Below are positions 29,023 through 50,384 of a DNA stretch of 64,000 nucleotides, one piece after another. The translations under genes were made by a program, and so were the position numbers. The DNA comes from a virus (lineage: Duplodnaviria > Caudoviricetes): IMG/VR virus record IMGVR_UViG_3300024259_000011; one strand, 5' to 3'. How positions within the stretch are numbered: the stretch's first letter is position 1; each line of letters begins with the position of its first letter. The notes below the pieces were generated by a model. That model was given only the letters and a program-made list of their open reading frames with translations, made no database searches and was not told the DNA's origin.

Positions 29023-29097
29023 TGGAGCGGGAAACGAGATTTGAACTCGCGACCCTCACGTTGGCAACGTGATGCTCTACCACTGAGCTATTCCCGC
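29023..29097 (-). tRNA. trnG: tRNA-Gly(GCC)
   Basis: Canonical GCGGGAA...TTGCCAA...TTCCCGCTCCA. Confidence 0.96.
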
Positions 29098-29103
29098 ATT
29101 CAA

Positions 29104-29779: not shown

Positions 29780-29784
29780 ATATG

Positions 29785-29861
29785 TGGTACTCCGAGTAGG
29801 ACTTGAACCTACGACCCACAGCTTAGAAGGCTGTTGCTCTATCCAACTGAGCTACCGGAGC
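29785..29861 (-). tRNA. trnR: tRNA-Arg(TCT)
   Basis: GCTCCGG/TCGGAGT acceptor, CTTCTAA loop, CCA. Confidence 0.95.
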
Positions 29862-30151: not shown

Positions 30152-30821
30152 GCTCTTTTTTAAAGTTCTTTAATCTAACGATTCCATCTACCACCGTAAC
30201 GTAGGTCATATGCTCTACCCAATCACCAGTATTGACATATGTTTTGATTTCTTCATTGTGATTGACCCAGATCACAGTCTCCGGTCGGTGAGAGTGTCCC
30301 ATTATTGACACGTCAACATCATTATTGAAGTCGATTATATCCCAAAGCCTTATGAGCTTACGTTTAGCTAATGCTTTGTTTGACCACCATGTTGCCAAGT
30401 CAACACTAAATCTTCTTTCCAGCCAGTCTTGGCAGACCGAGACCAACTTTAATAATATACCCTCCGCAAATCTGGACCAAAATCCTTTATCGTAACGGTC
30501 GCCGTGTTCAACTCTGAATGTTCTGCCAGAATCGGTAAAGGTATACTCTTCCATAAAGCGAATCTGGTTGAGTTCTTTGCCGGCGAATTCGTCAAAGCTG
30601 AAATCGTGATTTCCGATAATATAAACAACGCTATGAAACGATGCTATCCGATGCAGAATATCCAACGAGTGTTCTGAGAAGATGGGCACCTTCACGAAGT
30701 CCACAATATCTCCAGCCAAGATTAGTTCGTCGCATTCCACTCCATTGAGGAACTGAAGTAATTCCTCTTCCTTGCAATACGCACTCCCAATATGTAAGTC
30801 AGAGATTATTACCCGTTTCAC
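30132..30821 (-). CDS. Calcineurin-like metallophosphoesterase, LpxH-like
   Basis: SDLHIG, GDIVD, GNHD, HGDRYD, GHSH and NTGDW motifs. Confidence 0.85.
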   Translation of the reverse strand: MKRVIISDLHIGSAYCKEEELLQFLNGVECDELILAGDIVDFVKVPIFSEHSLDILHRIASFHSVVYIIGNHDFSFDEFAGKELNQIRFMEEYTFTDSGRTFRVEHGDRYDKGFWSRFAEGILLKLVSVCQDWLERRFSVDLATWWSNKALAKRKLIRLWDIIDFNNDVDVSIMGHSHRPETVIWVNHNEEIKTYVNTGDWVEHMTYVTVVDGIVRLKNFKKELDKDHI

Positions 30822-31245
30822 TATCGTCGTCAGTTTTAAATGCTGCTTTTGCAGCTTTTATAAATTTAGCTCCTATAGTATAACTATCAAGTTCCTCAAT
30901 AGTTACCCATTTATACTCAGTGTGTTCTTCACTTAGTTTTATTGTACCATTGTACTGACGTGTTTTATAAAACTTTATTCTGCCATGCTGGTGTACTTGT
31001 ACGGGGCTTGCAATGTCAAGAGTAGTTTCTTCTTTTACTTCTCTTTTGAGTCCAGCTATCTCGTCTTCATCTTCATGGATATGACCGCCCGGGAAATCCC
31101 ATTCGTTAGGGTATTTTTGTGCATCAGAACTGCGCTTTACAATCATAAACCGATCATCGGTATTGATGAGAATTATTTTGCGTATTTGATCAGAGTCCAT
31201 ATCCTCTAATATATAGTGCCGCCAATTTTCAAAAAGTTGCTTCAC
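30799..31245 (-). CDS. NUDIX hydrolase with N-terminal ENW tag
   Basis: WDFPGGHIHEDEDEIAGLKREVKEET Nudix box; begins MKQLFENWRHYILE. Confidence 0.9.
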   Translation of the reverse strand: MKQLFENWRHYILEDMDSDQIRKIILINTDDRFMIVKRSSDAQKYPNEWDFPGGHIHEDEDEIAGLKREVKEETTLDIASPVQVHQHGRIKFYKTRQYNGTIKLSEEHTEYKWVTIEELDSYTIGAKFIKAAKAAFKTDDDSETGNNL

Positions 31246-32489
31246 TGCCTAAACAGACCCACATCTACCATAACTAGTTGCCCACTATCTGGGCGCATCA
31301 TGACATTGCCTGTGTGCATGTCTCTGGGACTAAATGATTTGCCGTGCAGATATTCCATTGCGTTCAACAAACCCTCGGCTTCTGAGAATGTCTCTTGCGT
31401 GTGTTTGCCGCCGCCGCCTAATCTGGCACCTTCTGGGGCGCCGTACGTCATTGGAACGACTTGCATCTTCAGATGGTAATACATCCTATCATCAAGCTCG
31501 TATGACACACTGTCCATCACTGATTCTCTACGAGTTGAAAAGTAATCGTGGAGTTCAGGGTTGGCGTCTGGATCCAACTCATGTTTCTTGACAAAATCAG
31601 GAAGCATGTTATCGATCTTATTAAAAAAGATGTTTAATAATCGTGGTCCATGTGGCTCAAATGACGAAGCATGATAGCGTGACAAGCGACCATAGTTAAC
31701 ATACATGTTTTCTCTTGGGCTTTCGCCTGTAAGGAAAGCGTTGGTGACTTGCTTAATCAACGTGTCAAGATGCCATTTAGACCAGCGGTCCACAGCAGCA
31801 GTCATATGAGGCGAGATGGACTTAGCCATGTTTGTGATCAACTCAGTTACCGCACCTTCACTGCCGAATGTACGTTTGATTTTGCTTGTAGGAATCTCTT
31901 CGTCGGGGTCATCCATTAATAAAGTGGCCAGTACTTCCTTTGGTGCAGTAGTCAACAACTCCATAATAATCACTAACGCACCTTCTGCCATTTGATACGG
32001 CTGCTCGCGGTGGTTTACGATGTCTTTGCCGGGAATTCTGTCAACAGAGTACACATTAACAAGGTGCCGTTTTACCTCTTCGGGTAGGTTTGTTCTATTC
32101 TCCAGAATCCATCTATAATTTTGCTCTTCTTTATCAATCTGTTGACCTGCCAAGAGTGCTGATACTACTTTAACTGCAAGTCTGCGCCCTGAACGTCCTT
32201 CAATCTCCCAAATCTTTCCGTATTGCCCTTCATCAACAAAACGATTGACCCAGAAGCCTCGGTCTTCCAATATCTTCTCCAGCATACGCGGCATGACGCG
32301 CACAGGCTTCACAGGCTTGGGCGCAGTTGCTGTTGCGTCAACACTGTCGCCGCGGACACCTAAAGCCTTAAGCGCATTCTTAAGCGCGCCGCCGCGCTTC
32401 TCGTTCTCCATGTCTTTCTGGAGTTTTTTCACCAAGTCGGAAGTTTCACCCTCGGTAAACCGCCGGAAGTTTTCAAGTAGGAGTTTCAT
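31242..32489 (-). CDS. Protein kinase-like protein with N-terminal ENF tag
   Basis: EGQYGKIW, AVKVV, IIMELL and RDMHTGNVMM...MVDVGL motifs. Confidence 0.75.
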   Translation of the reverse strand: MKLLLENFRRFTEGETSDLVKKLQKDMENEKRGGALKNALKALGVRGDSVDATATAPKPVKPVRVMPRMLEKILEDRGFWVNRFVDEGQYGKIWEIEGRSGRRLAVKVVSALLAGQQIDKEEQNYRWILENRTNLPEEVKRHLVNVYSVDRIPGKDIVNHREQPYQMAEGALVIIMELLTTAPKEVLATLLMDDPDEEIPTSKIKRTFGSEGAVTELITNMAKSISPHMTAAVDRWSKWHLDTLIKQVTNAFLTGESPRENMYVNYGRLSRYHASSFEPHGPRLLNIFFNKIDNMLPDFVKKHELDPDANPELHDYFSTRRESVMDSVSYELDDRMYYHLKMQVVPMTYGAPEGARLGGGGKHTQETFSEAEGLLNAMEYLHGKSFSPRDMHTGNVMMRPDSGQLVMVDVGLFRQ

Positions 32490-32862
32490 CTATCGTCGCT
32501 CCTTGTAGTAAAACGCCAGAGGGTAAAAGAACCGAACCAAAAATCTCCAAACTATCTAAGGCGGTTTTAGCACTGCTGTTCCAATATTCTAAATCATCAG
32601 GATCACCCATCTCTTCATACTGCTGTACTATCGTCATGTTTGGTTCTATTTCGCCTCTTATTTTTTCCAACGGCACTTTTACTATTGTCGGACTCTCATA
32701 ACTATTGGCATAGTCTTTTGCGGTTTGGAAATCTCCCCAATATGTTTCAACTGCTGTGAAGTTATCAATCATTTCGTGGGCGAAATCCTTTGAGGTTCCG
32801 TGATATAAGTAACCTTGTTCTTCTTTCAAATACTCTCGCCAATTTTCAAGTAGGTCTTTCAT
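32473..32862 (-). CDS. Putative ADP-ribosyltransferase-fold protein with N-terminal ENW tag
   Basis: LYHGTS...Y...AKDYA pattern; start at MKDLLENW. Confidence 0.5.
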   Translation of the reverse strand: MKDLLENWREYLKEEQGYLYHGTSKDFAHEMIDNFTAVETYWGDFQTAKDYANSYESPTIVKVPLEKIRGEIEPNMTIVQQYEEMGDPDDLEYWNSSAKTALDSLEIFGSVLLPSGVLLQGATIDETPT

Positions 32863-33425
32863 TTTTTTAAGCCTTCGGTTCCGTACCCTCCGAGAGACCA
32901 TGAGCCGTTCATTATATGACCAACATGGTGAACATCATCAAACCCCATGGCATGACCAAGTTCGTGTTCTAAGATTCTTTCCGAATCACCCCATGCTGAC
33001 ATTATCTCAATCTTTGCTTTAAAGATTCGACCGGTATCATTATTGCGCCAAGTTTTAGTTGTGCCCAAGTGAGTTCCCATCTTAAAGCCTTGGCTCGGGA
33101 TATCGATCATTATTGTATTATATGGCACCTTTCCGCGTGCGCAGCCATAATCGTCGGAGGAGGCTTGCTTAATGTTGCCAAACTCATAACCTAATCGTTT
33201 CCAATAGCCGACAGCCCTTTCTATTCTATTCATGCTCACCGGACCTCGATGACATAATATGATGTCTGGAGGGTAACGCCATGAACCGCTGCGAGTCGGA
33301 ACATTTGATGCGAAAGTTTTTGCAGGACACACCCACGTTTCGGGAGGGGGTGATAGCTGGTCTACCGTGTGTGCCGTACGGGGAAACGGGTATGCTATAG
33401 CCGTCCAGAGAAGCAATGCTTTCAT
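32859..33425 (-). CDS. Matrixin-like (M10) metalloprotease, probably exported
   Basis: HELGHAMGFDDVH (HExxHxxGxxxxH) followed by a Met-turn; hydrophobic N-terminus. Confidence 0.75.
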   Translation of the reverse strand: MKALLLWTAIAYPFPRTAHTVDQLSPPPETWVCPAKTFASNVPTRSGSWRYPPDIILCHRGPVSMNRIERAVGYWKRLGYEFGNIKQASSDDYGCARGKVPYNTIMIDIPSQGFKMGTHLGTTKTWRNNDTGRIFKAKIEIMSAWGDSERILEHELGHAMGFDDVHHVGHIMNGSWSLGGYGTEGLKK

Positions 33426-33439
33426 TCATGTGACCTCCA

Positions 33440-33775
33440 CTATTCGTAAACAATTGCGTGTCCTTCATTTATTAATATTTGATTGACACTTTCTTGACTA
33501 CCAATAAATAGTTCGCCTAAACATCTTCCGTACTTTCCAACACCATGAGAAACCAAAACAAATCTGTCATCAGCAGCCGTCAATATTTCTAAAAGACGTG
33601 CCTTCGCTGACAGTCCTCTTTCTTTCTCAACAAGATCGCGGGTACGAGATTCTGGTGCATTAATCCCATAAAGACGAATGCGCTTCTTAACCCAAACCTC
33701 AAAGCCCAAGTCAATCAGCGCATCTATCGTATCGCCGTCAACAACACGAATCAACTTCGCATTGTATTTATACAT
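33440..33775 (-). CDS. Thermonuclease (SNase-like)
   Basis: VVDGDTID, RIRLYGINAPE and GKYGRCLG motifs. Confidence 0.9.
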   Translation of the reverse strand: MYKYNAKLIRVVDGDTIDALIDLGFEVWVKKRIRLYGINAPESRTRDLVEKERGLSAKARLLEILTAADDRFVLVSHGVGKYGRCLGELFIGSQESVNQILINEGHAIVYE

Positions 33776-34384
33776 TTATAGCAGCCCCTCGACCCAGCCT
33801 TGAATGGTTCCTTCGTTCCAGCCATTAAGCCCATGTTGTAAAACCATGTTGCGGTCAATAATAACTAGCGTTGGCCAACTTGTCACAGGATATCCATCTT
33901 CCAACGGCTCAGTCAAATCAATCATTGCGCGTGAGCCGGCGAGAACAGGAAGCGTAATGCCATGGGTCGCTGCCCAATCCTCTAAGTCATTTAGTTCAAC
34001 TGTGTCTCGCGATGCGTCTTCAATAAGGATTGTAATCCAAACAAAGTTTTCATCTCCGTACGCCTGAACCCAGTGGTCGCCTACTGGCGCAATCATGTTG
34101 CAGGGTCCACACCACATTGCTGATAAATCTACAACAATAACTTTTCCGTAATGCTGATATAGGTCCGACTGTTCGCCATACTGATCCATCAACTCAAAGT
34201 TGCAAGGGTTGTTTCCAATGTCATGAGCACAACTCTCCCATGTTGCCCATGGGTACGGCTCAAGTGGCACCGGGACTGTTGGCTGTCCAATGCCTACGAT
34301 GGCACTGTCATCTGTTATTGTGACCTCAGCAGGTCCACATGCGCCACAGCCTATGGCAAACATTAATAGCAATAATCTAATCAT
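33776..34384 (-). CDS. TlpA-like thioredoxin-fold lipoprotein
   Basis: Lipobox-like IGCGAC, DLSAMWCGPC and WPTLVIIDR. Confidence 0.8.
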   Translation of the reverse strand: MIRLLLLMFAIGCGACGPAEVTITDDSAIVGIGQPTVPVPLEPYPWATWESCAHDIGNNPCNFELMDQYGEQSDLYQHYGKVIVVDLSAMWCGPCNMIAPVGDHWVQAYGDENFVWITILIEDASRDTVELNDLEDWAATHGITLPVLAGSRAMIDLTEPLEDGYPVTSWPTLVIIDRNMVLQHGLNGWNEGTIQGWVEGLL

Positions 34385-34395
34385 CTTTTCTTCTC

Positions 34396-35025
34396 CTATG
34401 GGTTGGGGGTTCCCAACATAATCTTTAATTCATTTTCATGTCCTTGAATAGTTCTAGTGTACCAGCCGTCGATGCCCGGGTATTTACCATCCGGGTGAGG
34501 TCCGAGCCATGTAATCGGTTTTGAGGCGCCCAGTGTTTTCTGTACAACTTCCGGGTCGTCCACATAAGGGGTGTCATGATATTTCAACATAACATGTGCG
34601 ATGCCTTTAGACATCTCTGCATATGTGCCGGGTGAACGCAGCATATCTGCTGTCTTTGCTTTGTAAGCGTCGATAGACGTGCGTTTACCATCGTGTCCAG
34701 ATGCGGACAGTTTTAGTCCGGCAGGTTTGCTTTTAGCAACGCGAAGAGCATCAGGTTCCGGGTCATCGTCAATATCAATAGCTGACCAATGGTCTGCATC
34801 GCCGGGGATGTCTGAGGGGCTTTTATAATCGAAGTTGCCGCCGATGTCCTTATATGCGTTAGCAATCAGCGCGTGTAACTCATCGGTAATATCGACGTTC
34901 TCGGGATCACTTGACATGTCACTAGTAGGAATCTCTTCCCAGTTACCCTTGTCGTGTCCATAGTCAGCCCAAGTTTCTTCATTAACAAACTTGCGCCAAT
35001 TTTCCATGATGAGTTGGTGTTTCAT
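34396..35025 (-). CDS. Hypothetical protein with N-terminal ENW tag
   Basis: Begins MKHQLIMENWRKFVNEE; remainder unassigned. Confidence 0.7.
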   Translation of the reverse strand: MKHQLIMENWRKFVNEETWADYGHDKGNWEEIPTSDMSSDPENVDITDELHALIANAYKDIGGNFDYKSPSDIPGDADHWSAIDIDDDPEPDALRVAKSKPAGLKLSASGHDGKRTSIDAYKAKTADMLRSPGTYAEMSKGIAHVMLKYHDTPYVDDPEVVQKTLGASKPITWLGPHPDGKYPGIDGWYTRTIQGHENELKIMLGTPNP

Positions 35026-35279
35026 TTTACTTCGTCTACAGACTTATCCATTTCATCGTCAAAGTCAGGTCTGATCCAAACCATTGAATTGAACTGTGCC
35101 CTTTTTCTGTCAAGTAATAGAGCACCTTGTGGTTTCACAAGTTCTCCCTGAATCTCAACACCTTCAAAGTCAATCTCTGTTTTCTGTTTATAAACAACCT
35201 TGGGCTCATTTTCGTCAGCGTGTACCGGGGAAGATGATACAAGGAGTGCAAAGGTTAATAATATTTTACCACTCGCCAT
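35022..35279 (-). CDS. cglF: CglF/GltF-like adventurous gliding motility protein
   Basis: Signal peptide plus KTEIDFEGVEIQGELVKPQG...RKRAQFNSMVWIRPDFDDEMDKSVDEV, matching from recall the myxobacterial CglF pattern KTxIDF.dv.IeGEL.KP.G...F..li..R..F..El.KS.d.L. Confidence 0.7.
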   Translation of the reverse strand: MASGKILLTFALLVSSSPVHADENEPKVVYKQKTEIDFEGVEIQGELVKPQGALLLDRKRAQFNSMVWIRPDFDDEMDKSVDEVK

Positions 35280-35502
35280 CGAAGCCTGCTCCTGCGGCTA
35301 GCGCTGCCGCTAGTCTATCGACATCATCATCGCTCATATGAGCGGTAGCGTCGATAGGTTCTTCCAAAGACATGATTTGGTCATTAGTAAGTTCAGGCTC
35401 AGTGTCGTCCTCTGGTGGTGGGACATCGCCCGGGTCGTCATCGCGCTTGTATTTTCCTTCCATAAACCGTCTCCAGTTCTCCATTATTAGTTTTTGATCC
35501 AT
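35266..35502 (-). CDS. Small acidic protein with N-terminal ENW tag
   Basis: MDQKLIMENWRRFMEG after GGAGG RBS. Confidence 0.7.
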   Translation of the reverse strand: MDQKLIMENWRRFMEGKYKRDDDPGDVPPPEDDTEPELTNDQIMSLEEPIDATAHMSDDDVDRLAAALAAGAGFDGEW

Positions 35503-35589
35503 TTTAGTCTCCTCCGTACGTGACCCAAAGCTCGATGGCTTCTTTATATTCATAGATTTCTTCAAGCGGCATGCTGGCTAGTGCTCGAT

Positions 35590-35949
35590 CTAAATGCCTC
35601 TCATCTTCCACCAGCAGTACCTCTTTCTATTAAGTAAATAGTATGGATGATCCTCATTTGCATATGCTTCTCTCTCAAAAGGATTTTCGCGATATGCTTT
35701 GGCTCCGTCTCTGTACCGAACTAAGCCGATTAGGTGGAACAGTCCATAAAGAATCCACTGTCCCACAAACAAAAGTTCTAATTGCTGTTGGTAATGAATG
35801 GTCTCATGTCGTTTTGTGGTATCTGATAGCTCTCCGCGACACCAGACCCAAAACCCAAAACTAATTGCCCATATATTAATAGGCGCTAGCTTAGAAAGCC
35901 AAGCTGGTATCTTGCTGTTTTCAATAAATATCGGTTTCCATAATCTCAT
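35590..35949 (-). CDS. Small zincin-like protein
   Basis: RHETIHYQQ and NPFEREAY motifs. Confidence 0.65.
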   Translation of the reverse strand: MRLWKPIFIENSKIPAWLSKLAPINIWAISFGFWVWCRGELSDTTKRHETIHYQQQLELLFVGQWILYGLFHLIGLVRYRDGAKAYRENPFEREAYANEDHPYYLLNRKRYCWWKMRGI

Positions 35950-36118
35950 AGTTTTTCGTCTACCATCCTTATTGCCTCTTCTACATCCATGCCTTGCTTG
36001 GCTAACTCGACAACCTGCCGAACTGCTTTCTCAAGTCACGACCCAGCGAGGTCTTCACTGAAGAACTCATATGCGCGTGTATGCGCTGTAGAATGTCTCC
36101 ATGCATCAAATATCTCTT

Positions 36119-36556
36119 TCACTTCTTTTCTCCATTAGTAAGTATGTTCGTGTATCTGTTTTTTACTTTTTCACTTATCGGAATTGGTTCGCCATCACCG
36201 TCAATCCGAACATATGTGATTTCTGTAGTACACACTGTTCTTTGTGTGCCATTATATGGGCTGTGTCTTCTGGCGCCTAAACGAATTGTAATCGAGCATT
36301 CTCCTATCCTTTTGACAGAGCCATAGATCTTAATAATATGACCCGGGCGTACGGGCTTCTTAAATATTACTTCAGATAGTCTTACAGTAACAAGTCTTGG
36401 CGAGTCAATACATTGAGCCGCGTACGCTGCACCGGATTCATCTAGCCAAGCGAGCAGATCGCCGCCAAACAGGTTTCCATGAACGCCCACATCTTTCGTC
36501 TTGCAAACGTGAGTTGATATTAACTCAATCAGTGATTCTTTGTTAGGTTCTGTCAC
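36119..36556 (-). CDS. HotDog-fold acyl-CoA thioesterase
   Basis: GNLFGGDLLAWLDE and FKKPVRPG motifs. Confidence 0.88.
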   Translation of the reverse strand: MTEPNKESLIELISTHVCKTKDVGVHGNLFGGDLLAWLDESGAAYAAQCIDSPRLVTVRLSEVIFKKPVRPGHIIKIYGSVKRIGECSITIRLGARRHSPYNGTQRTVCTTEITYVRIDGDGEPIPISEKVKNRYTNILTNGEKK

Positions 36557-36560
36557 CGCT

Positions 36561-36734
36561 TTAGTCTTCTTTGTTCTCTATAGTTTTTTCAAGTTTGATT
36601 CCGAGTATGCACAGTACCCCAGAGCCTAAGGCTAACCACATTGTCTCTGGCGCACTCGTCATAAACCCAAAAGTAAAGAGTGCAATGTTAATGCCCAGTG
36701 CGGCAACACATACATCTCGCATTATTTGTTTCAT
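36561..36734 (-). CDS. 57-aa membrane protein with two hydrophobic segments
   Basis: Hand-translated MKQIMRDVCVAALGINIALFTFGF...; preceded by CTATTTA motif and a sigma70 promoter. Confidence 0.6.
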   Translation of the reverse strand: MKQIMRDVCVAALGINIALFTFGFMTSAPETMWLALGSGVLCILGIKLEKTIENKED

Positions 36735-36738
36735 ACCG

Positions 36739-36745
36739 TAAATAG
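36739..36745 (-). promoter_or_regulatory. CTATTTA motif (putative late promoter)
   Basis: 4 nt upstream of ATG 36734; recurrent motif. Confidence 0.5.
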
Positions 36746-36758
36746 TTTACGATTTCCA

Positions 36759-36787
36759 ATTATAGTTCACACGACCGTCAAAATCAA
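36759..36787 (-). promoter_or_regulatory. Sigma70-type promoter
   Basis: TTGATT-N17-TATAAT. Confidence 0.6.
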
Positions 36788-36898
36788 GTTTTTTTCTATG
36801 GACTATTTATTAGCGTACGAAGCTTATGTTGCTATTAACCTTGCCGACCGTCCGGGTAGCGTAGGGATAGTGGTGCGAGCGTACTTAGGAGGAACAAT

Positions 36899-37078
36899 GT
36901 GGAAACGAAAGACCGGAGAATACTGGCATACTTGAAGAATGCAATCAGTGAAACACTAGTAAAAATAGAAGAGCCTAAGAATCGGGAAGACCTAATTGAT
37001 GAGGTCATGAAACTTAGGAACCTAAAGCGTTCAGAGTTAACACTCAAACATATTATCGAACAAGACGATAAGAAGTAA
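36899..37078 (+). CDS. 59-aa helical protein, the only credible plus-strand gene
   Basis: GTG start 6 nt after GGAGG; ends 2 nt before a bidirectional terminator. Confidence 0.5.
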   Translation: METKDRRILAYLKNAISETLVKIEEPKNREDLIDEVMKLRNLKRSELTLKHIIEQDDKK

Positions 37079-37080
37079 TA

Positions 37081-37106
37081 AAAAAACCCGCCGAAGCGGG
37101 TTTTTT
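37081..37106. terminator. Bidirectional intrinsic terminator
   Basis: AAAAAACCCGC-CGAA-GCGGGTTTTTT; C(UUCG)G tetraloop on the minus strand. Confidence 0.9.
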
Positions 37107-37124
37107 ATTTATTAGAGGTTTTCT

Positions 37125-37727
37125 CTACGCTAGCAGTTCGATAAGCTGTGACTTCTTAAGCTTAGAATAGCCTTTGGCGCCACTGTCCTTTGCCATCGCC
37201 TTGAGTTGATCAACCGTCATATTCGACAGGTCAAAGGTACCTTTGATACCCTCCGCGTCGTCATCATCCGGATTGATATCAACCACTTCAATCTCAAAAC
37301 TGAGATCCTTGCCGGCTAGCGGATGGTTGAGATCCAACGTCACATCAGTGTCCGTGAAAGACGCAACCTTAGCGAACAGAGGACGACCATCTGCGGTGGT
37401 TCCCTGAACAGGTGCGCCTTCAAAGAACTGATAATCAGAAGGAAACTGGTCCCGCTGAACAGTGCTGAATGCCTCTGGGTTTGTCGGACCATACGCATCG
37501 TCAGATGCGATGCTAATCGTCTTTGTTTGACCTTCAGTCATTCCAATCAATGCGGATTCAAATCCTTTGATTAGTTGACCAGAGCCAACGACAACGGGTA
37601 GCGGCTGTCCGCGCTCGTATGAGCTATCGAACACATTACCGTCCGTAAAGCTACCCTTATAATGAAGTAGAACACCGTCGCCGGTGACTACCTTCTGCTT
37701 CTTTGTGTTTGCCATTTTTTTCTCCAT
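37125..37727 (-). CDS. slyD: SlyD-like FKBP peptidyl-prolyl isomerase with C-terminal Rho N-terminal-like domain
   Basis: LHYKG...FDSS, GQLIKGFE.AL and DLNHPLAGKDLSFEIEV; tail MTVDQLKAMAKDSGAKGYSKLKKSQLIELL. Confidence 0.85.
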   Translation of the reverse strand: MEKKMANTKKQKVVTGDGVLLHYKGSFTDGNVFDSSYERGQPLPVVVGSGQLIKGFESALIGMTEGQTKTISIASDDAYGPTNPEAFSTVQRDQFPSDYQFFEGAPVQGTTADGRPLFAKVASFTDTDVTLDLNHPLAGKDLSFEIEVVDINPDDDDAEGIKGTFDLSNMTVDQLKAMAKDSGAKGYSKLKKSQLIELLA

Positions 37728-37764
37728 GGTTTTTATTTTGCGCTTTTAACGCTCTTGTACAAGA

Positions 37765-38136
37765 TGGTGGAGGCGGCGGGAATCGAACCCGCGTCCAGAA
37801 TAAGTCTAATTGTAGTCGTTCACAAGTTTATTCAGTTTTGGTGCAACGAAACTGAAAAAGTTGACTATCTTGATCTGATCCCACCGTTGCCGGCGATAGC
37901 CTTTGAATCAGATATGGTTTGGTGGTTTTAAGATACCGCTTACCACCCTGTTGCAGCATCTACTCAAATTGGATAGAAGGTTTTGAGTGACCTCCCGATT
38001 AAGCCGCTAGGCGTACAGAATCGAAGTGGTTATTGTTATTAGCAATTATGTTTTGTATCTGCGTTTAAAGTCTGCTGGTACGTTTGACTACTTGCACTTT
38101 TCCTCTTTCCTACCCTGTCGAAACCGGGGCGCCCCC
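37765..38136 (-). ncRNA. ssrA: tmRNA, tag ANNNNHFDSVRLAA
   Basis: 5' GGGGGCG..TTCGAC; 3' GGTTCGATTCCCGCCGCCTCCACCA; G3-U70 pair; ATAATT before the GCT resume codon; tag ORF at 37999-38043. Confidence 0.93.
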
Positions 38137-38376
38137 GTTAGGTTTTTTCTTCTTACTTCGCTTTGTTATTTTCTTGGTGATCACGCCAAGTGGCTTTCCG
38201 CCTTCACCGTCAAGCCAAATGACGATCTCATCTTTTCTATCTATCTCCGACCGCACCGCTGTGAGATATTTAATCTCTTTCTTCGCTTTTTTTAGGGCTG
38301 CAGCTTCCGTGGTGTGGCTACTAATTAGCTCACCTTGAATATAATGCCCATCCCATTTCCAGACTTTCCAGCTCAT
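38110..38376 (-). CDS. Hypothetical basic protein
   Basis: 88-aa ORF whose last codons overlap the tmRNA 5' end. Confidence 0.6.
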   Translation of the reverse strand: MSWKVWKWDGHYIQGELISSHTTEAAALKKAKKEIKYLTAVRSEIDRKDEIVIWLDGEGGKPLGVITKKITKRSKKKKPNGGAPVSTG

Positions 38377-38407
38377 ATGTTCTTTAAAATATCTTAGTCT
38401 TATATAG

Positions 38408-38617
38408 ACTCAAGAGAAGATTGTTGGCGCTCCTCGCGACCAACTTACCAGCCTAACTTCTACTGCTGTTCCTTCAAAATGGATATCCCATGTCATAGGG
38501 AGTACGTCTGGAACTACTTTGAAACAGCAAGGTTCGTTTTAGACATTGAACCGACAACCTTTATATTGTTAAACCCTCTAGAGAGCCGGTCGCAATTACG
38601 ACCAGTATATATTGAGT
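38408..38617 (-). ncRNA. Candidate rod-shaped ncRNA of about 210 nt (6S-like proportions)
   Basis: Nested long-range helices found by eye; no long minus-strand ORF; extended -10 upstream. Confidence 0.5.
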
Positions 38618-38654
38618 TTTCGCATAGCCACTCCTGTCTTTATTTTGTTTCTCT

Positions 38655-38663
38655 ATTATAACA
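38655..38663 (-). promoter_or_regulatory. Extended -10 promoter (TGnTATAAT)
   Basis: TGTTATAAT with no recognisable -35. Confidence 0.5.
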
Positions 38664-38665
38664 CA

Positions 38666-38998
38666 CTATTCTGAAAAAAACGAGTCCGTTTTATATATTT
38701 TTAGATTTTTATTTAGTTCTGCCACTGTGATACCCAAAAATCTTGCTGCCTCTTTCTTTGACCGAGTGGCTGAGAGAGCATATTTAAGTACTGCATCTCT
38801 AGTAAGTTCTGGTAGAGATTTCCAGATAGGGAAACCATAGAATTTCCCTCTGAGAGATCTAGTAGAGAGTTCAAGCTTGAGAGCAATCACTTCTTCTAGT
38901 GTTAATGAATTGATCATTATTTCAAATTCATCACTTATCTTCTTGTCTTTCTGAAGTTTCTTTGATATACTGTATGTATGATTTTTACCTACTTTCAT
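38666..38998 (-). CDS. Fis-like helix-turn-helix protein
   Basis: AVLKYALSATRSKKEAARFLGI resembles the HTH_8 pattern. Confidence 0.65.
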   Translation of the reverse strand: MKVGKNHTYSISKKLQKDKKISDEFEIMINSLTLEEVIALKLELSTRSLRGKFYGFPIWKSLPELTRDAVLKYALSATRSKKEAARFLGITVAELNKNLKIYKTDSFFSE

Positions 38999-39046
38999 AT
39001 TTCCTTCTTAAGTTAGAATATCAAGTAAGAGTAATTTAGTAATTAT

Positions 39047-39075
39047 AATATACCACCAAACGGAGGTCTTGTCAA
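39047..39075 (-). promoter_or_regulatory. Sigma70-type promoter
   Basis: TTGACA-N17-TATATT. Confidence 0.75.
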
Positions 39076-39123
39076 GGGGGAAATGAAAGAAAGATCGATC
39101 TTTTCACAAAACTTTTACAAGTA

Positions 39124-39387
39124 CTACCAATTTTCTTGTGGATTGGTCCCGGGCTTTTGCGCCCAGACCGCTTTATTGACGGTGAGTTGATACCATCCTT
39201 CCAACATTCTAACGTTAACTTCCCAGTCGTTTCCCAAGGTCTGACGAAGCTCTTCGGCTTCTGATTCTTTTTGAGCGCGCAGGTTTTTCTGTCGTGCCAG
39301 TTTGTCATCATGCGCTCTCTGCTTACCAGAGATTTCGTTAAGCTCTTCTTTAATAATCTGTTTAAGTTGTGATTGTGAAATTTTCAT
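39124..39387 (-). CDS. Small protein with LKQIIKEE helix
   Basis: Starts MKISQSQLKQIIKEELNE; ATGA coupling. Confidence 0.7.
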   Translation of the reverse strand: MKISQSQLKQIIKEELNEISGKQRAHDDKLARQKNLRAQKESEAEELRQTLGNDWEVNVRMLEGWYQLTVNKAVWAQKPGTNPQENW

Positions 39388-39521
39388 AAGTATACTCCTA
39401 CAATGTATCCGAGAATCATGCCTTTGATTGCAGAGATCCACAGAAGCTGGTAGTTCGATAGATTACAGTAGTCTGCTACACATTGAATCCTGTCTTTGTG
39501 CCATTGTACAAAATGATCCAT
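39384..39521 (-). CDS. 45-aa membrane peptide
   Basis: Hand-translated MDHFVQWHKDRIQ...LSNYQLLWISAIKGMILGYIVGVYL; coupled on both sides. Confidence 0.6.
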   Translation of the reverse strand: MDHFVQWHKDRIQCVADYCNLSNYQLLWISAIKGMILGYIVGVYL

Positions 39522-40393
39522 TATAAACCTCCGAAGTCCATCTCTTCTTCTCCGCCCAATCCCATTTCTTCTTCGCCGCCCAGTTCAGCCTCAGCGCCTT
39601 TCTCCTGTTCGTACTCGGGAGTCGTAGGTTCTTCGGGAGTTCCTTCAAGTTCTGATTCCCATGTGTCAAAATACAGTTTGAGGTTAGTAATCAAATAATC
39701 GTAATATTGTTTTCTGTCTTCTTCAGAGCCAAGCTTTGCGTATGGCTCGATGACATTCTTAGAAACTTTGTTCCATGCGTCAAGAGCATAGTTGCGACCG
39801 GTCTTGTCCATCTCGCCAACGCCTGCACCGAACTCTTCTCTTTCAGACTCTAGTGGGTCCGCCTCTTCTGGTTCTTCGCCCAGCTTTAATGCGTCAAGTC
39901 CATTAGCTTCATCTTCAACCTCTTCTTCAGAATCATCACCCATTGCAAGCTCTGTTTCTATAAGGCTGTTTAACGCTTCTGCTAGCTCTTCTAAGCCGCT
40001 TTCGGCGCCCATGGCGATACCAGTGTCCTCGCCACCTTCAGTGGCGTTAGGAAGCCCTGCAGCGCGCTCCACGCCAAGAGCTTTAATAGCTGCGTTGATG
40101 ATATGGGAACGAAAGGATTTCCTCTGTTCTGCAGAAGTCGTGAGAGTCTTAAACTCTGTTTCAAGTTCTGATAAAGTGTTTGTATTAAGAAGCATGTTGT
40201 CAAGGGCATTACCACCCGTGTTCAAAGATGGACCTTCTGTATTAGAATCTTTTTCATTGAGGATAGTGCGAATAATATTACGCAGCTTAGTTTCCTCTGT
40301 CAAGTTTTTTTGACGTTTGCTTTGAACAAGGCGGATAGCTTTGCGAACGTTCTCGCGCAGGATTATCTCATTATAAAAATCAATGCGGTTCAT
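39521..40393 (-). CDS. Acidic putative prohead core/scaffold protein
   Basis: LRENVRKAI and LRNIIRTILNE helices; Glu-rich spacers. Confidence 0.5.
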   Translation of the reverse strand: MNRIDFYNEIILRENVRKAIRLVQSKRQKNLTEETKLRNIIRTILNEKDSNTEGPSLNTGGNALDNMLLNTNTLSELETEFKTLTTSAEQRKSFRSHIINAAIKALGVERAAGLPNATEGGEDTGIAMGAESGLEELAEALNSLIETELAMGDDSEEEVEDEANGLDALKLGEEPEEADPLESEREEFGAGVGEMDKTGRNYALDAWNKVSKNVIEPYAKLGSEEDRKQYYDYLITNLKLYFDTWESELEGTPEEPTTPEYEQEKGAEAELGGEEEMGLGGEEEMDFGGL

Positions 40394-40752
40394 TATATTT
40401 CTCCACGCTCAATTTTCGCCCATAGATTTTGCATCTGAGCACTTGTTACAGATCCCGACTTATCTGCCCCAGCCGGACGAGGTTCTTCTGGTCCCGTGCG
40501 CGAAAGCCCGCCATCCACATCACCACCGCCTTGCTCAAACTTGGCAATCCAGCGAAGTGCATACTGCAGCTTCTCTGAAGGCTTGCTGCCGGGGAGATTG
40601 GAATCTGCAAGGAACTCAAACAAAGCGTAGTATGCTTCTGCGCCGGCTGTTTGCTCTTCGTCAGACAAAGGTTCAATATCAATTGACCCGCCTGTAAACC
40701 GACCTTCTGTGAAACGGTTAAAATTCTCTAATAATGTTTTCATGTCACTCAT
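40393..40752 (-). CDS. Small protein with N-terminal ENF tag
   Basis: MSDMKTLLENFNRFTEG. Confidence 0.7.
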   Translation of the reverse strand: MSDMKTLLENFNRFTEGRFTGGSIDIEPLSDEEQTAGAEAYYALFEFLADSNLPGSKPSEKLQYALRWIAKFEQGGGDVDGGLSRTGPEEPRPAGADKSGSVTSAQMQNLWAKIERGEI

Positions 40753-40755
40753 ATC

Positions 40756-40765
40756 TATAAATAGT
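40756..40765 (-). promoter_or_regulatory. ACTATTTATA motif (putative late promoter)
   Basis: 3 nt upstream of ATG 40752. Confidence 0.55.
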
Positions 40766-40768
40766 CCT

Positions 40769-43045
40769 TTATTCCCCTAAAGCGACGTTTGCGCCGCTTC
40801 GTTTTTTTGCCATGGTTTCGATCTCATCGCCTTCTTCATAGTACGGCGCTCGCTCTACAGGATCTAACGACAGTGCCGCTGGACCCCATGCAAGATCTGC
40901 CATATTCTCTTCAATCTCTTCATCATCTTCACGGATCAATGTATCTGCTTCTTTCTTTTTCTTTTTGCTAGCTGGTCCTTCAACCGCACCACCTGCCATT
41001 GCCGAGATCTCATCCATGGTCTCTTCGATTAATCTCATAAGAGTTTCAGCAATCTGTGCTTGCTCGGGATCGCTCATAGCAACTTGGGCGCCCATCATAT
41101 TAATAACTTCTTTGGCTTGACCTCTAATGGCTTGTGGTAAGAACTCGGCAACAGTCTGAACATCGCCTTCTTCAACAGCATTGCGGAAATCAGTTGCGCT
41201 AAGATCAACGGTCGTTACTTTCTCTTCGCCAGTTTCGGGATCGACTTCTACTACTTGACGTGTAAAGTCTTTTCCATCAACATTGACTGCATATTGTTCA
41301 CCAGCTAAGACACGCACACCGTCTCTGGCGTACTGTTGTACGCTGCCAGCAAAACGTGAATGATCACCCCCTTTTGTGCTGACTCCAAGTATTACATGGT
41401 CGCCCGGTTGTGCTTTTTGTGGGTCGTTGTCTTCGTTGCCCACAAAATCGTAGGTCATCCTAACTGGTGAATTCACTGAAGAGATACTAACCTTTACAGT
41501 ATCCGTTAAGCCGTAAGCTTCAACATACTTGTTCCAAAGGTTCATAGAGTGTTCAGACGTAAAGTCAATTGGTTCTGCAAACTCCCCGTCGCTTTTGCGA
41601 CTGAGGGGCGAAACATAAACTTTTACTTCATCTGCCATTACAGCATATTGCCGTACCATAGCGAAGTGTCCTCTGTGTGGTAGCTTAAACGCGCCGGGAA
41701 CAATCGCGACGATTCTTCGTCTTGCTGTTGCCTCGTCAAGTCTATCGATGGCTTCCACATCTCCTCTTCCGTATCTAAATAATCCTAAAATCTGATTGAT
41801 AGGTGCAAAGTTACCAGTGAACTTATACATCTGTCCGTTCCAAGTAAACACAAAGCCTTCGACTGCAGTATTAACGTTGTCGTGGCTCTTGAGCTTCTTG
41901 AGTTGTCTTATTAAAATCTCATGGGCTTCATCTTTGCCCGGTCCATCATAAGTTTGAATCTTATCAATAGCTGTGGCGACCTCATCACGTAGTCTGCCCA
42001 ACTCATTTCCATTGTCAAGAATATATGCACTTTCCAAACCCTTCAGCATTTCTACAGCGAAGTCATGGATGGCATCTTCAATTGGTTCGATGATTTCACC
42101 AAGAAGTCTCTTCTTATTATTCTTTTCGAGTAACTGGGACAGTGCTGCAACTTCTTGCTCATCTCTGAGCATCTTGCGCACTTTGCGAATATTCACTCGA
42201 CCCTTTACAGCTTTGAAGTGATCAATAATATGTCCAATCACTTCTTTGTTTGCACTCGGTACTGCTCTCTTGATAATAGGAGTCAGTTTCATATCTGTGT
42301 ATTGACCAATGGTCATGTTACCGCTGAACCCTGCGTGGTTCATGCGACGTAGAGTGTCCTCAAGGATGCTACGGTCTGAAAGCGCCTGTAACTGCAATGT
42401 AGCCGTCTTACGCACAGAGAAGGGTTCGTCTGCAGTCGCTTCTTCAAAGCGGTCCAGAACGTCATCCAGCGCCTGTGAGACACGCTCTACATCTGAGTCC
42501 TTAACATTGACAACAGTATCGCTTTCTTCGATATACTGTTTGTGACCAGAGGAATGAATTGATAAAACATTCGCATCATAGTTAACAACGTTAGAAGCGC
42601 CCGGTCCTTGAATCTCTGTGTTCAAGAATATGGGAGCCTCTGAGCCAAAGAGCATTTGTTGCTCTTCCGGCGTTAAGGATCTTACAGCCTTTTCAAAGGC
42701 GCGGAAGGATGCAGTGTAAACTCTCTTGACACCCTCGCCGCCCTTGAATACACGCGCAGCAAGGTCAGCAGTATTACTGCCTCCCTTACGCATGTCGCCT
42801 TTATTACGAGCGTAACGAGCTTCGCCATCAACATAACTGAGATAGATGTTATAGCCATCTGTTTTTTCGGTCCCTATCAATTCACCACGCGCAGCGGTGC
42901 TAAGGATCTCCTCCATGTCTGAATAGGAGAGATCGGGATTGTCATACAGGTGAGCCAAGTGCCCAGCAACACCACCTTCTAACAGGAGGTGCTTGCCACG
43001 CTTTTGTGCTTCTCTCAGTAATTTGTTGTAAAGCTTATCATTCAT
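40769..43045 (-). CDS. Ligase-like nucleotidyltransferase domain fused to a HIGH-family nucleotidyltransferase
   Basis: EGGVAGHLAH, TEKTDG, EGFVF...YKFTG in the N-half; PGAFKLPHRGH and LSATDFR in the C-half. Resembles the cytidyltransferase gene of T4-like marine phages. Confidence 0.75.
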   Translation of the reverse strand: MNDKLYNKLLREAQKRGKHLLLEGGVAGHLAHLYDNPDLSYSDMEEILSTAARGELIGTEKTDGYNIYLSYVDGEARYARNKGDMRKGGSNTADLAARVFKGGEGVKRVYTASFRAFEKAVRSLTPEEQQMLFGSEAPIFLNTEIQGPGASNVVNYDANVLSIHSSGHKQYIEESDTVVNVKDSDVERVSQALDDVLDRFEEATADEPFSVRKTATLQLQALSDRSILEDTLRRMNHAGFSGNMTIGQYTDMKLTPIIKRAVPSANKEVIGHIIDHFKAVKGRVNIRKVRKMLRDEQEVAALSQLLEKNNKKRLLGEIIEPIEDAIHDFAVEMLKGLESAYILDNGNELGRLRDEVATAIDKIQTYDGPGKDEAHEILIRQLKKLKSHDNVNTAVEGFVFTWNGQMYKFTGNFAPINQILGLFRYGRGDVEAIDRLDEATARRRIVAIVPGAFKLPHRGHFAMVRQYAVMADEVKVYVSPLSRKSDGEFAEPIDFTSEHSMNLWNKYVEAYGLTDTVKVSISSVNSPVRMTYDFVGNEDNDPQKAQPGDHVILGVSTKGGDHSRFAGSVQQYARDGVRVLAGEQYAVNVDGKDFTRQVVEVDPETGEEKVTTVDLSATDFRNAVEEGDVQTVAEFLPQAIRGQAKEVINMMGAQVAMSDPEQAQIAETLMRLIEETMDEISAMAGGAVEGPASKKKKKEADTLIREDDEEIEENMADLAWGPAALSLDPVERAPYYEEGDEIETMAKKRSGANVALGE

Positions 43046-43292
43046 TACTACCCTTTCCTTCTTCTAAAACTTGTAGTTTTTCTTGAAGAAGGGTAACTTC
43101 GTTTTGTAACCTACGAACCGAACGGCGAATCTCTCTGAGATGCGACTTGGCAATCTCTACTCGGCGTTCATCAGTTCTGGTGTTTGGGCGAAGCTTCCCG
43201 ATAACCTCTTCAAGAGATTGAATAAAACTAGCGACAGACGGACCTTGACCTTCAGTCAAAAACCGTCTTGTCATCTTGTCAAAATCAATCAT
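43038..43292 (-). CDS. Small coiled-coil protein
   Basis: Start at MIDFDKMTRRFLTEG, a variant of the N-terminal tag. Confidence 0.6.
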   Translation of the reverse strand: MIDFDKMTRRFLTEGQGPSVASFIQSLEEVIGKLRPNTRTDERRVEIAKSHLREIRRSVRRLQNEVTLLQEKLQVLEEGKGSNE

Positions 43293-43293: not shown

Positions 43294-43515
43294 TTACGAT
43301 GCATCGGTAATGACCTTCTTAGCCTTTGTCTTCTTTGTAGTCGTAGTCTTCTTAGTTGTAATCGTCTTGCCAGTTCCAATGCCATCAGTTGTACCCGTGG
43401 TAGTAGTGGTGGTAGTGGTTGTGGTATCTGAAATATTTTCAATAATCGTATCCACTTTGGCAGCCGCTGCATCAATCTGTGCCATCAGCCTACGTCGTTT
43501 CCATGTCTTACCCAT
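43294..43515 (-). CDS. Thr/Lys-rich low-complexity protein
   Basis: MGKTWKRRRL..., poly-Thr, TKKT tail; TAATG coupling. Confidence 0.55.
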   Translation of the reverse strand: MGKTWKRRRLMAQIDAAAAKVDTIIENISDTTTTTTTTTTGTTDGIGTGKTITTKKTTTTKKTKAKKVITDAS

Positions 43516-44612
43516 TATTTCGCCCACCTTTTAATAAGCCTTTCGTACAACTTCTCTTGCCGGCGCTGGAAAGTCTCTTGAAGATCGTCGGTGTCTTCCT
43601 CATCATCTTCTGCTTCCTCAATAGTCCCGGCTGAACGATGCTTACTAACATCGGGGGATGAACTTTCGTCCAACTCGACGCACTTGCCGGCAACCATCTT
43701 CTTGCCTTGCTTTTCGCACTGCTGTTTTGCACGGTCACCACCTAGACGACTGCCCTTAGCAGCTTCATCAACGGTTTCCTCGTCTTCGTCTTGGCTTTCC
43801 TTTACGGCTTCTTTAGACCCGCACTTGACTTGGGCGCCGGCTTTATCATAGCACTTCTGGCTGGTCTTGGGATCGCGGTGAGGTGGTGCCTTTCCGCCGG
43901 CGTATGCCTCATCAACGGTCTCCTCATCTTCACCTTCTTCTAGGTTCTGACCGGGACTGCCATCGGAAGCGTTGCCCTGACGGTGACCCTGTTGGTTGTT
44001 GTCACGGGAATCCTTGCGGTCGCCCTGACCTTCTTCTTGGACATCCTCTTCTTCCTCTTCTTCGTTAACGGCACCACCGGTTGTGATGGTAGCGTTCTTC
44101 ATGATCTCAGCAACAATGCTTTTGACCAGTTTTTCATGTTCAGACATGGTAATATACTCCTTGTTAATATAATTAGTTTCATGCAAATTGTTACGCCTTT
44201 TTGATTTGTACTGGTCTTCCCAGTCTCTCATAACCATGGATGCGTAAGCTTCCTGTTCCATTTTTCTTAAGTGTCCGTCCGTCTGCGCGTAGCCATCTCC
44301 CGTCTCTCCCATCTTTTCTGGAGAGAGGTCGCCTCGGCAGTTCTGCGTGTGATGAACCAACTCATGCGCCAATGAGCGCAATAAATCTTTTGGGTGTCGC
44401 CCATCTACATAGAGGGTGACTGTATAATTATCAGGTTGATAGTGAGCGGTCTTACCCAGCGGATCATCAGCGTTGCTATCATCAGATGCATATACAATTT
44501 GAGCCGGCTTATCAAATCCTAAATACTCTTGGGCATAGGGATAGAAACGCTTCACCATATTGGTTAAAGCGGACATATCTTGCCCGGAGTCATTTTGGAT
44601 ATCGCAACTCAT
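43515..44612 (-). CDS. Zincin-like domain plus long acidic tail
   Basis: LLRSLAHELVHHTQ and EQEAY; tail punctuated by VNE, VQE, LEE, VDE and LQE. Confidence 0.7.
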   Translation of the reverse strand: MSCDIQNDSGQDMSALTNMVKRFYPYAQEYLGFDKPAQIVYASDDSNADDPLGKTAHYQPDNYTVTLYVDGRHPKDLLRSLAHELVHHTQNCRGDLSPEKMGETGDGYAQTDGHLRKMEQEAYASMVMRDWEDQYKSKRRNNLHETNYINKEYITMSEHEKLVKSIVAEIMKNATITTGGAVNEEEEEEDVQEEGQGDRKDSRDNNQQGHRQGNASDGSPGQNLEEGEDEETVDEAYAGGKAPPHRDPKTSQKCYDKAGAQVKCGSKEAVKESQDEDEETVDEAAKGSRLGGDRAKQQCEKQGKKMVAGKCVELDESSSPDVSKHRSAGTIEEAEDDEEDTDDLQETFQRRQEKLYERLIKRWAK

Positions 44613-49626: not shown

Positions 49627-50384
49627 AGTAGGTTCCCCACACTAACTCCTAGAACCTTATTAATCGCATTTCTAAGTTCTGCAAGTTCTTGTGGAGTTAT
49701 TATACCATATTCTTGTTCCATGATTAAGAGATTGTAAAGCTTATTTGCAGTGTTGCTGCGCATCCTGCTTTCGTTTATGCGTCGGCGCATGCCGGCACGC
49801 TTGGGAAACTCTTCACCGTCTTCTGGGGTTCTCATGTCTTCTTCTTCTGCTGCAGCTAACTCATCGTCAACCATCTGTTGAGCCATCGCCGAGTTCTCTC
49901 TTCCCAAATCATCTAAGTCTTGCTCAACTCGTTCTTGGTTCCACCAGTCTTCATGCTCGCGAGAAGTTTGGTCATGCAATTGCTCAAGCTCCTCCAACGA
50001 CATTTCGCTGAACCTAATCCAGCGTGGTCGTATCCCATTGATATCCTTATACATATCGGAAATGTCTTGTGATAAAGCATCAATCAACTCTTGACCTTGC
50101 AATGGTTGTCCATGCGTTTCGGCTTCAGGTTGCTCGGCGCTCAGATTTTCTGATCCTGCCATTACTTCGCGAATCATTTGTTTAAGTAAGTCTTTCATTT
50201 CATTAGTCTCTTTTTTATCAGGTAACCCTTTGTGTTTGGTGCTAGCAAAGTCTTTAGCGTCTTTGGCTTTCATTCCCCTTGCTGTGTCTTCTACCTCTTT
50301 GGAGGCACAATCTTTATAATCACTTTTCTTACAGGCATGCACCATGCCCATATAGCGTTGTTGCGATTTACTTTTTGAAGGCAT
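49623..50384 (-). CDS. DUF3008-like protein
   Basis: MPSKSKSQQRYMGMVHA...AKDFASTKHKGLP, known from T4-like marine phages. Confidence 0.75.
   Translation of the reverse strand: MPSKSKSQQRYMGMVHACKKSDYKDCASKEVEDTARGMKAKDAKDFASTKHKGLPDKKETNEMKDLLKQMIREVMAGSENLSAEQPEAETHGQPLQGQELIDALSQDISDMYKDINGIRPRWIRFSEMSLEELEQLHDQTSREHEDWWNQERVEQDLDDLGRENSAMAQQMVDDELAAAEEEDMRTPEDGEEFPKRAGMRRRINESRMRSNTANKLYNLLIMEQEYGIITPQELAELRNAINKVLGVSVGNLL

Follow-up and report, generated by a model that had tools for sequence, protein, structure and literature searches.

In bacteriophage T4, internal proteins (IPI, IPII, IPIII) and the Alt propeptide carry a short capsid-targeting sequence (CTS), for which Mullaney and Black (1996) is reportedly the source. 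In the T4 record, IPII and IPIII start with MKTYQEFIAE, so that the peptide and its terminal Glu are as given in an earlier, sequence-based prediction for the phage DNA studied here (the original prediction). The first 10 residues of IPIII are sufficient for packaging in T4, and CTS residues 8 and 10 control cleavage (PMC9026906, PMC3012670). T-even internal proteins are diverse and have the CTS alone in common (PMC9026906, PMC3012670), and their genes are variable (PMC3012670, PMC9026906). The cleavage motif of the prohead protease gp21 is (L/I)-x-E (PMC9026906, PMC5694885). We describe a 14-residue peptide (tag1, or simply the tag), with the consensus MKLLLENWRKYLNE, which heads many unrelated proteins of a widespread, as yet uncultured marine phage related to T4. 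This phage is represented by a stretch of 64,000 nucleotides (nt) from IMG/VR record IMGVR_UViG_3300024259_000011, called the window. On balance, we consider the tag to be probably a capsid-targeting propeptide of the T4 type.

Two other described systems resemble it in part. In phiKZ-like giant phages (SPN3US, phiKZ, 201phi2-1; PMC5694885), N-terminal propeptides of ejection or inner-body proteins are cut after Glu by a gp21-related protease, and paralogous head proteins have identical N-termini (PMC5694885). However, these propeptides comprise 20 to more than 100 residues, their motif is A/S/G-x-E, and there is no short consensus tag across hundreds of families. The polyvalent proteins of phages and conjugative elements (Iyer et al. 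2017, PMC5512222) comprise a predicted set of enzymes, among them ADP-ribosyltransferases (ART), kinases and NUDIX-associated domains, that reach the new host together with the DNA. A few tagged proteins are likewise fusions of two modules. However, a polyvalent protein is a giant chain of 2-15 effector domains with its own peptidase, whereas here the tag is mostly found on separate genes with a single body each.

A detachable N-terminal module

Every gene between 29 and 46 kb of the window is encoded on the minus strand. Six of these open with the pattern M-K-x-L-[LFM]-E-N-[WF]-R-x-[YF]-[LIV]-x-E (starts at 31245, 32489, 32862, 35025, 35502 and 40752). The original prediction had named seven shared N-termini. 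All seven are present in the sequence, but the last one, at 43292, has the core only. Lengths are given in amino acids (aa), bit scores are from a position-specific scoring matrix (PSSM).

30799..31245, minus strand: NUDIX hydrolase, tag MKQLFENWRHYILE (GTG start at 31245, tag codons 31204-31245)
31242..32489, minus strand: protein-kinase-like protein, 415 aa, tag MKLLLENFRRFTE (weak Pkinase / phrog_18305 kinase match at the C-terminus)
32473..32862, minus strand: ART/Tpt1-like protein, 129 aa, tag MKDLLENWREYLKE (ATGA-coupled start at 32862)
34396..35025, minus strand: protein with unassigned function, 209 aa, tag MKHQLIMENWRKFVNE (ATGA overlap at start 35025)
35266..35502, minus strand: acidic protein, 78 aa, tag MDQKLIMENWRRFME (ATG at 35502, preceded by GGAGG at a distance of 8 nt; 29.5 bits)
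40393..40752, minus strand: protein of 119 aa, tag M(SDM)KTLLENFNRFTE (14-16 bits; translation in register may start from the ATG at 40743)
43038..43292, minus strand: coiled-coil-like protein, 84 aa, degenerate tag MIDFDKMTRRFLTEG (core R-R-F-L-T-E only)

Four of the start contexts are typical, three being coupled to the stop of the upstream gene (GTGA or ATGA) and one having a GGAGG ribosome-binding site; the GTG start of the NUDIX gene at 31245 overlaps the TGA of its upstream gene. Synonymous codons vary between the tags of the window (GAA/GAG, AAT/AAC, CGG/CGA/CGC/AGA, CTA/CTT/TTA/CTC) and thus conservation acts on the peptide and not on the DNA. The pattern [LIMVF]xEN[WF]xx[FYWLIM] has 8 six-frame matches in the window where about 0.5 are expected (400 shuffles, maximum 4), and six of the eight are N-termini of open reading frames (ORFs) within 30.8-40.8 kb. 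Once the tag is removed, the bodies of the window genes are mutually dissimilar (best BLASTP E 0.15), which bears out the claim that the downstream domains are unrelated. Among the tagged window genes, Pfam recognised the NUDIX domain and, weakly, Pkinase, and gave no match for the remaining ones.

With the 758-aa protein encoded next to the tagged genes as query, 18 related IMG/VR loci were found, including G001 (81% identity, syntenic) and two contigs that are complete, G002 with 185 kb and G003 with 205 kb. The gene of 84 aa adjoins the 758-aa gene in these three relatives as well, the G002 orthologue starting with MFDLRSMTRNFLLGEG. While MIDFDKMTRRFLTEG matches just the C-terminal core [WF]-R-x-F-L-T-E, short forms like MxxKWNxFLTE occur on orthologues in the relatives, and it is therefore plausible that the sequence at 43292 is a degenerate member of the tag family.

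The product of the NUDIX gene matches Pfam family PF00293 (E 1.2e-15), and the NUDIX box GGH...REVKEET is conserved in the alignment of its orthologues. In its AlphaFold2 (AF2) model the body has a predicted local distance difference test score (pLDDT) above 90, and residues 1-20 form a low-confidence helix and a linker outside the fold. In the alignment, some orthologues have the full tag and others a short one (W-x-x-F-L-T-E), while further ones are untagged. Because it lies outside the modelled fold and varies in this way between orthologues, the tag is considered to be an add-on rather than a part of the enzyme.

The other tagged proteins of the window are less well assigned. Tagged relatives match Pkinase at 1.7e-8, and the G001 orthologue of the 415-aa kinase-like protein is tagged as well. 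In the 129-aa protein the tag is kept in 8 of 10 aligned homologues, with the x positions varying, while the other two start inside the tag and are likely truncated. The NAD-binding motif H-G-[ST] of ART was sought in this protein, and LYHGTS is conserved among its homologues. Its AF2 model is modest (pLDDT 63); the best PDB matches are Tpt1/KptA followed by ART toxins, all of them weak (E about 0.07-1, probability 0.9), and the Atlas leads are ART-PolyVal, PARP and Arr, with scores below 0.9. For the 209-aa protein, Pfam, PHROG and further family searches gave no match; its orthologues start with MKLLFENWRKFLKE in G003 and with the short form MNKKWKNFINE in G002.

The set of tagged genes differs between close relatives. 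The NUDIX, kinase-like and 209-aa cassettes are common to window positions 30.8-40.8 kb and to G001 positions 113-124 kb. No counterpart was found in this region of G001 for the ART-like gene, the tagged genes of 78 and 119 aa, the staphylococcal-nuclease-like gene and the thioesterase gene, and a tagged 369-aa gene of G001 is without a counterpart in the window. This indicates that tagged cassettes turn over rapidly, in which they are like the variable genes for T-even internal proteins (PMC3012670, PMC9026906).

We searched IMG/VR with a degenerate DNA pattern for MKxLxENWRx[FY] and obtained at least 120 loci, with up to six tag copies within 13 kb. The loci code for 216 distinct tagged proteins, which fall into 118 BLAST families once the first 22 residues have been removed. 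Their consensus is M-K-L-L-[LFM]-E-N-W-R-[KRQE]-[YF]-[LIV]-[NKT]-E, and its last three positions lay outside the search pattern. L, I or V is found at position +6 in 86% of these proteins and Glu at position +8 in 78%. Directly past this Glu conservation collapses, the following residues being unconserved and acidic. When 689 ORFs from the window and three related contigs were scanned with the PSSM, all matches of at least 12 bits were N-terminal; strong matches are not equally frequent at internal positions. Among 1.84 billion representative proteins, a 30-column profile built from 40 tags matched 1191 clusters at E<=1e-3. Among the 150 best matches, 136 begin at residue 1, and six internal ones are second copies in proteins that are tagged N-terminally too. 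The tag is thus a detachable, strictly N-terminal module on more than 100 unrelated protein families.

It is also virus-specific and nearly absent from cellular genomes: in 596 Gb of prokaryote genomes just 10 stretches match the tag pattern, mostly on small contigs of metagenome-assembled genomes (MAGs), compared to the at least 120 loci in IMG/VR. DNA of the window is found almost unchanged in marine/seawater runs from at least 14 studies. Complete tag-bearing genomes have 1-10 strict copies, which occur on the coding strand only and are clustered in one to three loci, and short forms such as MNKKWKNFINE and MNINKWRNFLNE add further copies. A literature search with the letters of the motif gave false matches only.

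Some metagenomic proteins (P0001, P0002, P0004, P0006, P0017 and P0025) are single chains in which two tagged modules have been fused. M-K is missing from the internal copy of the tag, e.g. ..ESLLFENWRRFLNEE.., as if this copy doubled as a cleavable linker. An 840-aa protein of G002 (146372-148894; L150) has the short N-terminal tag MNINKWRNFLNE and a tag-like remnant at its C-terminus (..NSWRKFLNG, followed by the stop codon), which may be a scar of cassette recombination.

Head genes of the lineage and a second tag

Relatives of the phage encode a prohead protease of the T4 gp21 type (Peptidase S77; PF03420, E about 1e-31 to 1e-35); in G001 this gp21 homologue is the ORF at 28544-29152. PF03420 was found in 13 of 15 large tag-bearing contigs, including each of the nine with a completeness of 90% or more. 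A capsid protein of the gp23 type (PF07068) was encountered in all three contigs checked. According to the protease, the closest cultured phages are Microcystis phage Mel-JY01, Flavobacterium phage immuto and Methylophilales phage Melnitz (47-57% identity). In the T4 record, the cleavage site of gp23 is at residue 65 (...GSFLTE/AEIGG, with the slash at the site), in agreement with the published propeptide length of 65 residues (PMC9026906). At the matching position, the capsid protein of the relatives reads ...KELLRE/AS. By its sequence, the tag ends exactly at the (L/I)-x-E motif of the gp21 family.

Like the T4 CTS, the tag is short, N-terminal and found on accessory proteins that evolve fast and are otherwise unrelated, and it occurs in several copies in variable loci of T4-like genomes with a gp21-type protease and a gp23-type capsid. 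If a 4-residue insertion is allowed for, M1, K2, E6 and the ending of aromatic-aliphatic-x-Glu, which is the gp21 motif, are common to both peptides, and the gp23 site of T4 has this ending too. Unlike the CTS, the tag has 14 residues rather than 10 and an invariant E-N-W-R block that is absent from T4; its cargo is mostly acidic, with enzymes of up to about 1100 aa; it can be exchanged for a second tag; and it is confined to uncultured marine phages and known from sequence alone. T4 internal proteins are small, basic and associated with DNA. The tagged bodies, mostly acidic and up to 1144 aa long, come closer to the Alt type, a packaged enzyme.

The second tag (tag2) has the pattern MK[IL]TKxQLKQIIKEE[LIV], in its extended form MK[IL]TKxQLKQIIKEE[LIV]xx[VL]LEE, and heads many small, neighbouring genes. 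There are at least 120 tag2 loci in IMG/VR, including a contig of a giant-virus MAG (loci L197-L276). Three genes of the window belong here:

39124..39387, minus strand: protein of 87 aa, tag2 MKISQSQLKQIIKEELNE
44609..45946, minus strand: acidic protein of 445 aa, tag2-like start MKIKISESKIRQIVNEEY (no match in family searches)
50368..51273, minus strand: protein of 301 aa, weak tag2-like start MSLNKKSLRALIKESLEQ

Some bodies are headed by tag1 in one phage, while their homologues elsewhere are headed by tag2; a total of 19 pairs of this kind have E<1e-10 (best 3e-78), e.g. with 73% identity over 149 aa or 95% over 88 aa. Because of these exchanges the two tags look functionally equivalent, and tag2 seems to be another address for the route proposed below for tag1.

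Tags were also encountered next to head genes. In 4 of 12 genomes, a variable slot directly past the protease gene holds a tag-bearing ORF:

G001: MKISKARLKQIIKEELEAVVNEEEE, which is tag2, on a small acidic ORF
G014: tag2-like start
G006: tag1-like core near the N-terminus (..ATWRTFLNEG)
G002: weaker tag1-like core (..GFRKWIGEE)

The corresponding T4 region encodes prohead core proteins. A conserved ORF of the head module near the protease starts with MKKxELKxxLKPLVKECIKE..LEEG. PHROG annotation of the protease-adjacent ORFs and of tag2 proteins gave no match, and the post-protease ORFs of G002 and G006 are not homologous to each other. From their context, the post-protease ORFs seem to tie the tags to the head module. 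The protease itself starts with M[SK]KxLL[RK]E[YF][YF]ELC.GG or a close variant in 11 of 12 tag-bearing genomes, G013 being divergent (L139-L142, L316-L324). This N-terminus holds two L-x-E sites (T4 gp21 starts with MNEPQLLIETW), and the layout of the MSKxLLREYYELCEGG type resembles that of the tag, a likeness that is suggestive only. We also considered whether the tag copies the propeptide of the capsid protein (MARLLENQAKELLRE in relatives). There is a likeness by eye, but the segment is not among the PSSM matches and it was not counted.

Capsid targeting and other possible roles

According to the explanation that we favour, the 14-mer, with the minimal core W-x-x-[FY]-[LIV]-x-E, would be a portable N-terminal propeptide of the T4 CTS type. 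As an amphipathic helix, it would dock the protein onto the scaffolding core during prohead assembly. The gp21-type protease would then cleave after the terminal Glu of the tag, and the mature protein would remain in the head and enter the host along with the DNA. This is well motivated by the analogy with T4, the boundary at the protease motif, the lineage and the gene context, and we regard it as somewhat favoured. What stands of the original prediction of a capsid-targeting cargo system is a portable, N-terminal, Glu-ending tag in a T4-like lineage, and its reach, over hundreds of contigs from uncultured marine phages, is far wider than was predicted.

A number of points weigh against this explanation. 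Packaging, cleavage and injection of the tagged proteins are what we infer by analogy. Alignment of the tag to MKTYQEFIAE needs a 4-residue insertion (NWRK), and the peptide is too short for statistics. The terminal Glu is absent from 22% of the tags. Tagged bodies are acidic (median isoelectric point 4.9, 82% acidic) and have a median length of 191 aa with a maximum of 1144, in which they are unlike the small T4 internal proteins. The evidence for protease and capsid protein comes from relatives, including G001 with 81% identity, and all ten tagged clusters that were looked up are metagenomic in source. Neither tag is present in five cultured relatives (Mel-JY01, immuto, Melnitz, DSL-LC03 and S-SZBM1); there are stray matches, namely the chance-like tag1 pattern ENWSTY in DSL-LC03 and one match to the tag2 pattern in S-SZBM1. 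The coding strand of the window has a single copy of the late promoter of T4 type, TATAAATA, and this copy is not upstream of tagged genes; in G001-G003 the promoter marks neither head genes nor tag genes. In G002 the tag cluster lies between the genes for RuvC, primase and SbcCD, with no structural genes. A search of the literature for marine viral metaproteomics gave nothing usable.

Finally, the annotated cargo could act in the cytoplasm. It comprises NUDIX, protein-kinase-like proteins, AAA_33 resembling polynucleotide kinase (PNK), a Zeta-toxin-like kinase, HAD_SAK_1, cyclic phosphodiesterase (tRNA_lig_CPD) and 5'-3' deoxyribonucleotidase. It is mostly nucleotide- or RNA-repair-like, and this leads to the first alternative. 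The tag might be a docking helix which recruits enzymes to a cytoplasmic hub, such as a non-covalent RNA-repair or nucleotide complex, and would then not be a capsid signal. The hub could be built around an untagged protein encoded beside tagged genes of the window:

40769..43045, minus strand: ligase-like and cytidylyltransferase-like protein, 758 aa, untagged (phrog_395/3041 cytidyltransferase)

It has a ligase-type KxDG motif in its N-terminal part (TEKTDGYN) and a cytidylyltransferase-like HxGH region in its C-terminal part, and it is conserved in the 18 IMG/VR relatives, in Mel-JY01 and in two uncultured phage records (462 and 484 kb). Its family is a frequent neighbour (19 of the 120 tag loci analysed), the annotated cargo is enriched in the PNK-like, HAD_SAK_1, tRNA_lig_CPD, NUDIX, kinase, deoxyribonucleotidase and Tpt1/ART-like types, the cargo is acidic, and the clusters lie among genes of DNA metabolism. 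However, most of the 118 families are without such an annotation. A linked partner gene was sought and no untagged family was found in more than 27% of the 120 loci. In addition, a docking helix needs neither a start at Met1 nor an end at a protease motif, while the tag has both, and the link to the gp21-type lineage and the slot adjacent to the protease would have to be coincidence. We consider a cytoplasmic hub unlikely.

The tag might also be the site for another enzyme or a signal for timed degradation, and would then govern the activity or lifetime of the proteins rather than their packaging. Two untagged neighbours are candidates for such an enzyme:

43515..44612, minus strand: HExxH protein (DUF6647-like), 365 aa, untagged (weak PF20352 match)
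53109..53885: trypsin-like protease (Trypsin_2)

The first has a HELVHH motif and a long acidic, lysine-rich tail, and its family is the commonest untagged neighbour (33 of the 120 tag loci analysed); that of the second occurs in 22 of these loci. However, conserved synteny accounts for this co-occurrence of 18-27%, a membrane or signal segment is located at the N-terminus of the trypsin-like protein, and the specificity of neither enzyme is linked to [LIV]-x-E, where gp21-type proteases are known to cut. A role of this kind is improbable.

That the peptide is a by-product of cassette shuffling, being spread by recombination at a conserved gene start and having no targeting role, has very little to recommend it: cassettes do turn over between close relatives and tag-like remnants exist at the C-terminus of the G002 840-aa protein and inside fusion proteins, but residues are conserved while codons vary, E, N, W, R, the aromatic residue, L and E are kept across more than 1000 clusters, and the short forms retain exactly the W-x-x-F-L-x-E core.

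If capsid targeting is taken further, it may be proposed, as a tentative extension, that this cosmopolitan, T4-like marine lineage loads its heads through two interchangeable tags and that the injected set, with more than 1000 families, can be read from metagenomes. Many of the injected families would then be RNA-repair, NAD/ADP-ribose and nucleotide enzymes that act before phage gene expression. To call them host-takeover or anti-defence enzymes, as the original prediction did, is a guess, and the annotated cargo fits a cytoplasmic enzyme complex equally well. The principle itself is known from T4, whereas the class of sequence, its scale of more than 1000 clusters, a cargo of acidic enzymes and the pairing of two interchangeable tags are new.

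Other features of the locus and significance

Untagged genes are interleaved with the tagged ones. Several have starts resembling those of signal peptides or lipoproteins, namely a HExxH protein, a thioredoxin-like lipoprotein and a secreted 85-aa protein (32859-34384, 35022-35279). A staphylococcal-nuclease-like gene (33440-33775) is also among them. A full-length transfer-messenger RNA (tmRNA), which scores 121.6 bits with Rfam and has the tag peptide ANNNNHFDSVRLAA, is encoded at 37765-38136 on the minus strand. Four tRNAs (Asn, Lys, Gly, Arg-TCT) are encoded at 28678-29861, again on the minus strand. The tmRNA and the tRNAs are located inside the stretch taken up by tagged genes and just upstream of it. 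Several small ORFs which start with MKVGDLV.. or similarly have a resemblance to SH3/KOW-like miniproteins (26664-26855, 62483-62707, 62694-62861 and 63007-63222).

There are 10 copies of the sequence TATTTATA on the coding strand of the window, compared to the single TATAAATA. Five of the copies (first base at 63234, 51298, 40763, 26890 and 26662) precede a gene start by 11-42 nt, and these genes include the tagged one at 40752 and the tag2-like one at 51273. It is possible that TATTTATA is a promoter element.

If the tag serves as a capsid address, it would be possible to list from sequence which proteins an abundant group of marine phages delivers to its hosts at infection, and hundreds of phage genes that are now 'hypothetical' would become a defined class of first-strike host-takeover or counter-defence proteins. 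The CTS principle of T4 would be general and its sequence free to evolve across the T4 superfamily, and a new, longer and highly conserved packaging tag would be at hand for engineering. Should it turn out to be a peptide for docking in the cytoplasm, a modular system of enzyme assembly in phages would come to light. Under both readings, a short motif gives access to more than 1000 protein clusters that are as yet uncharacterised.

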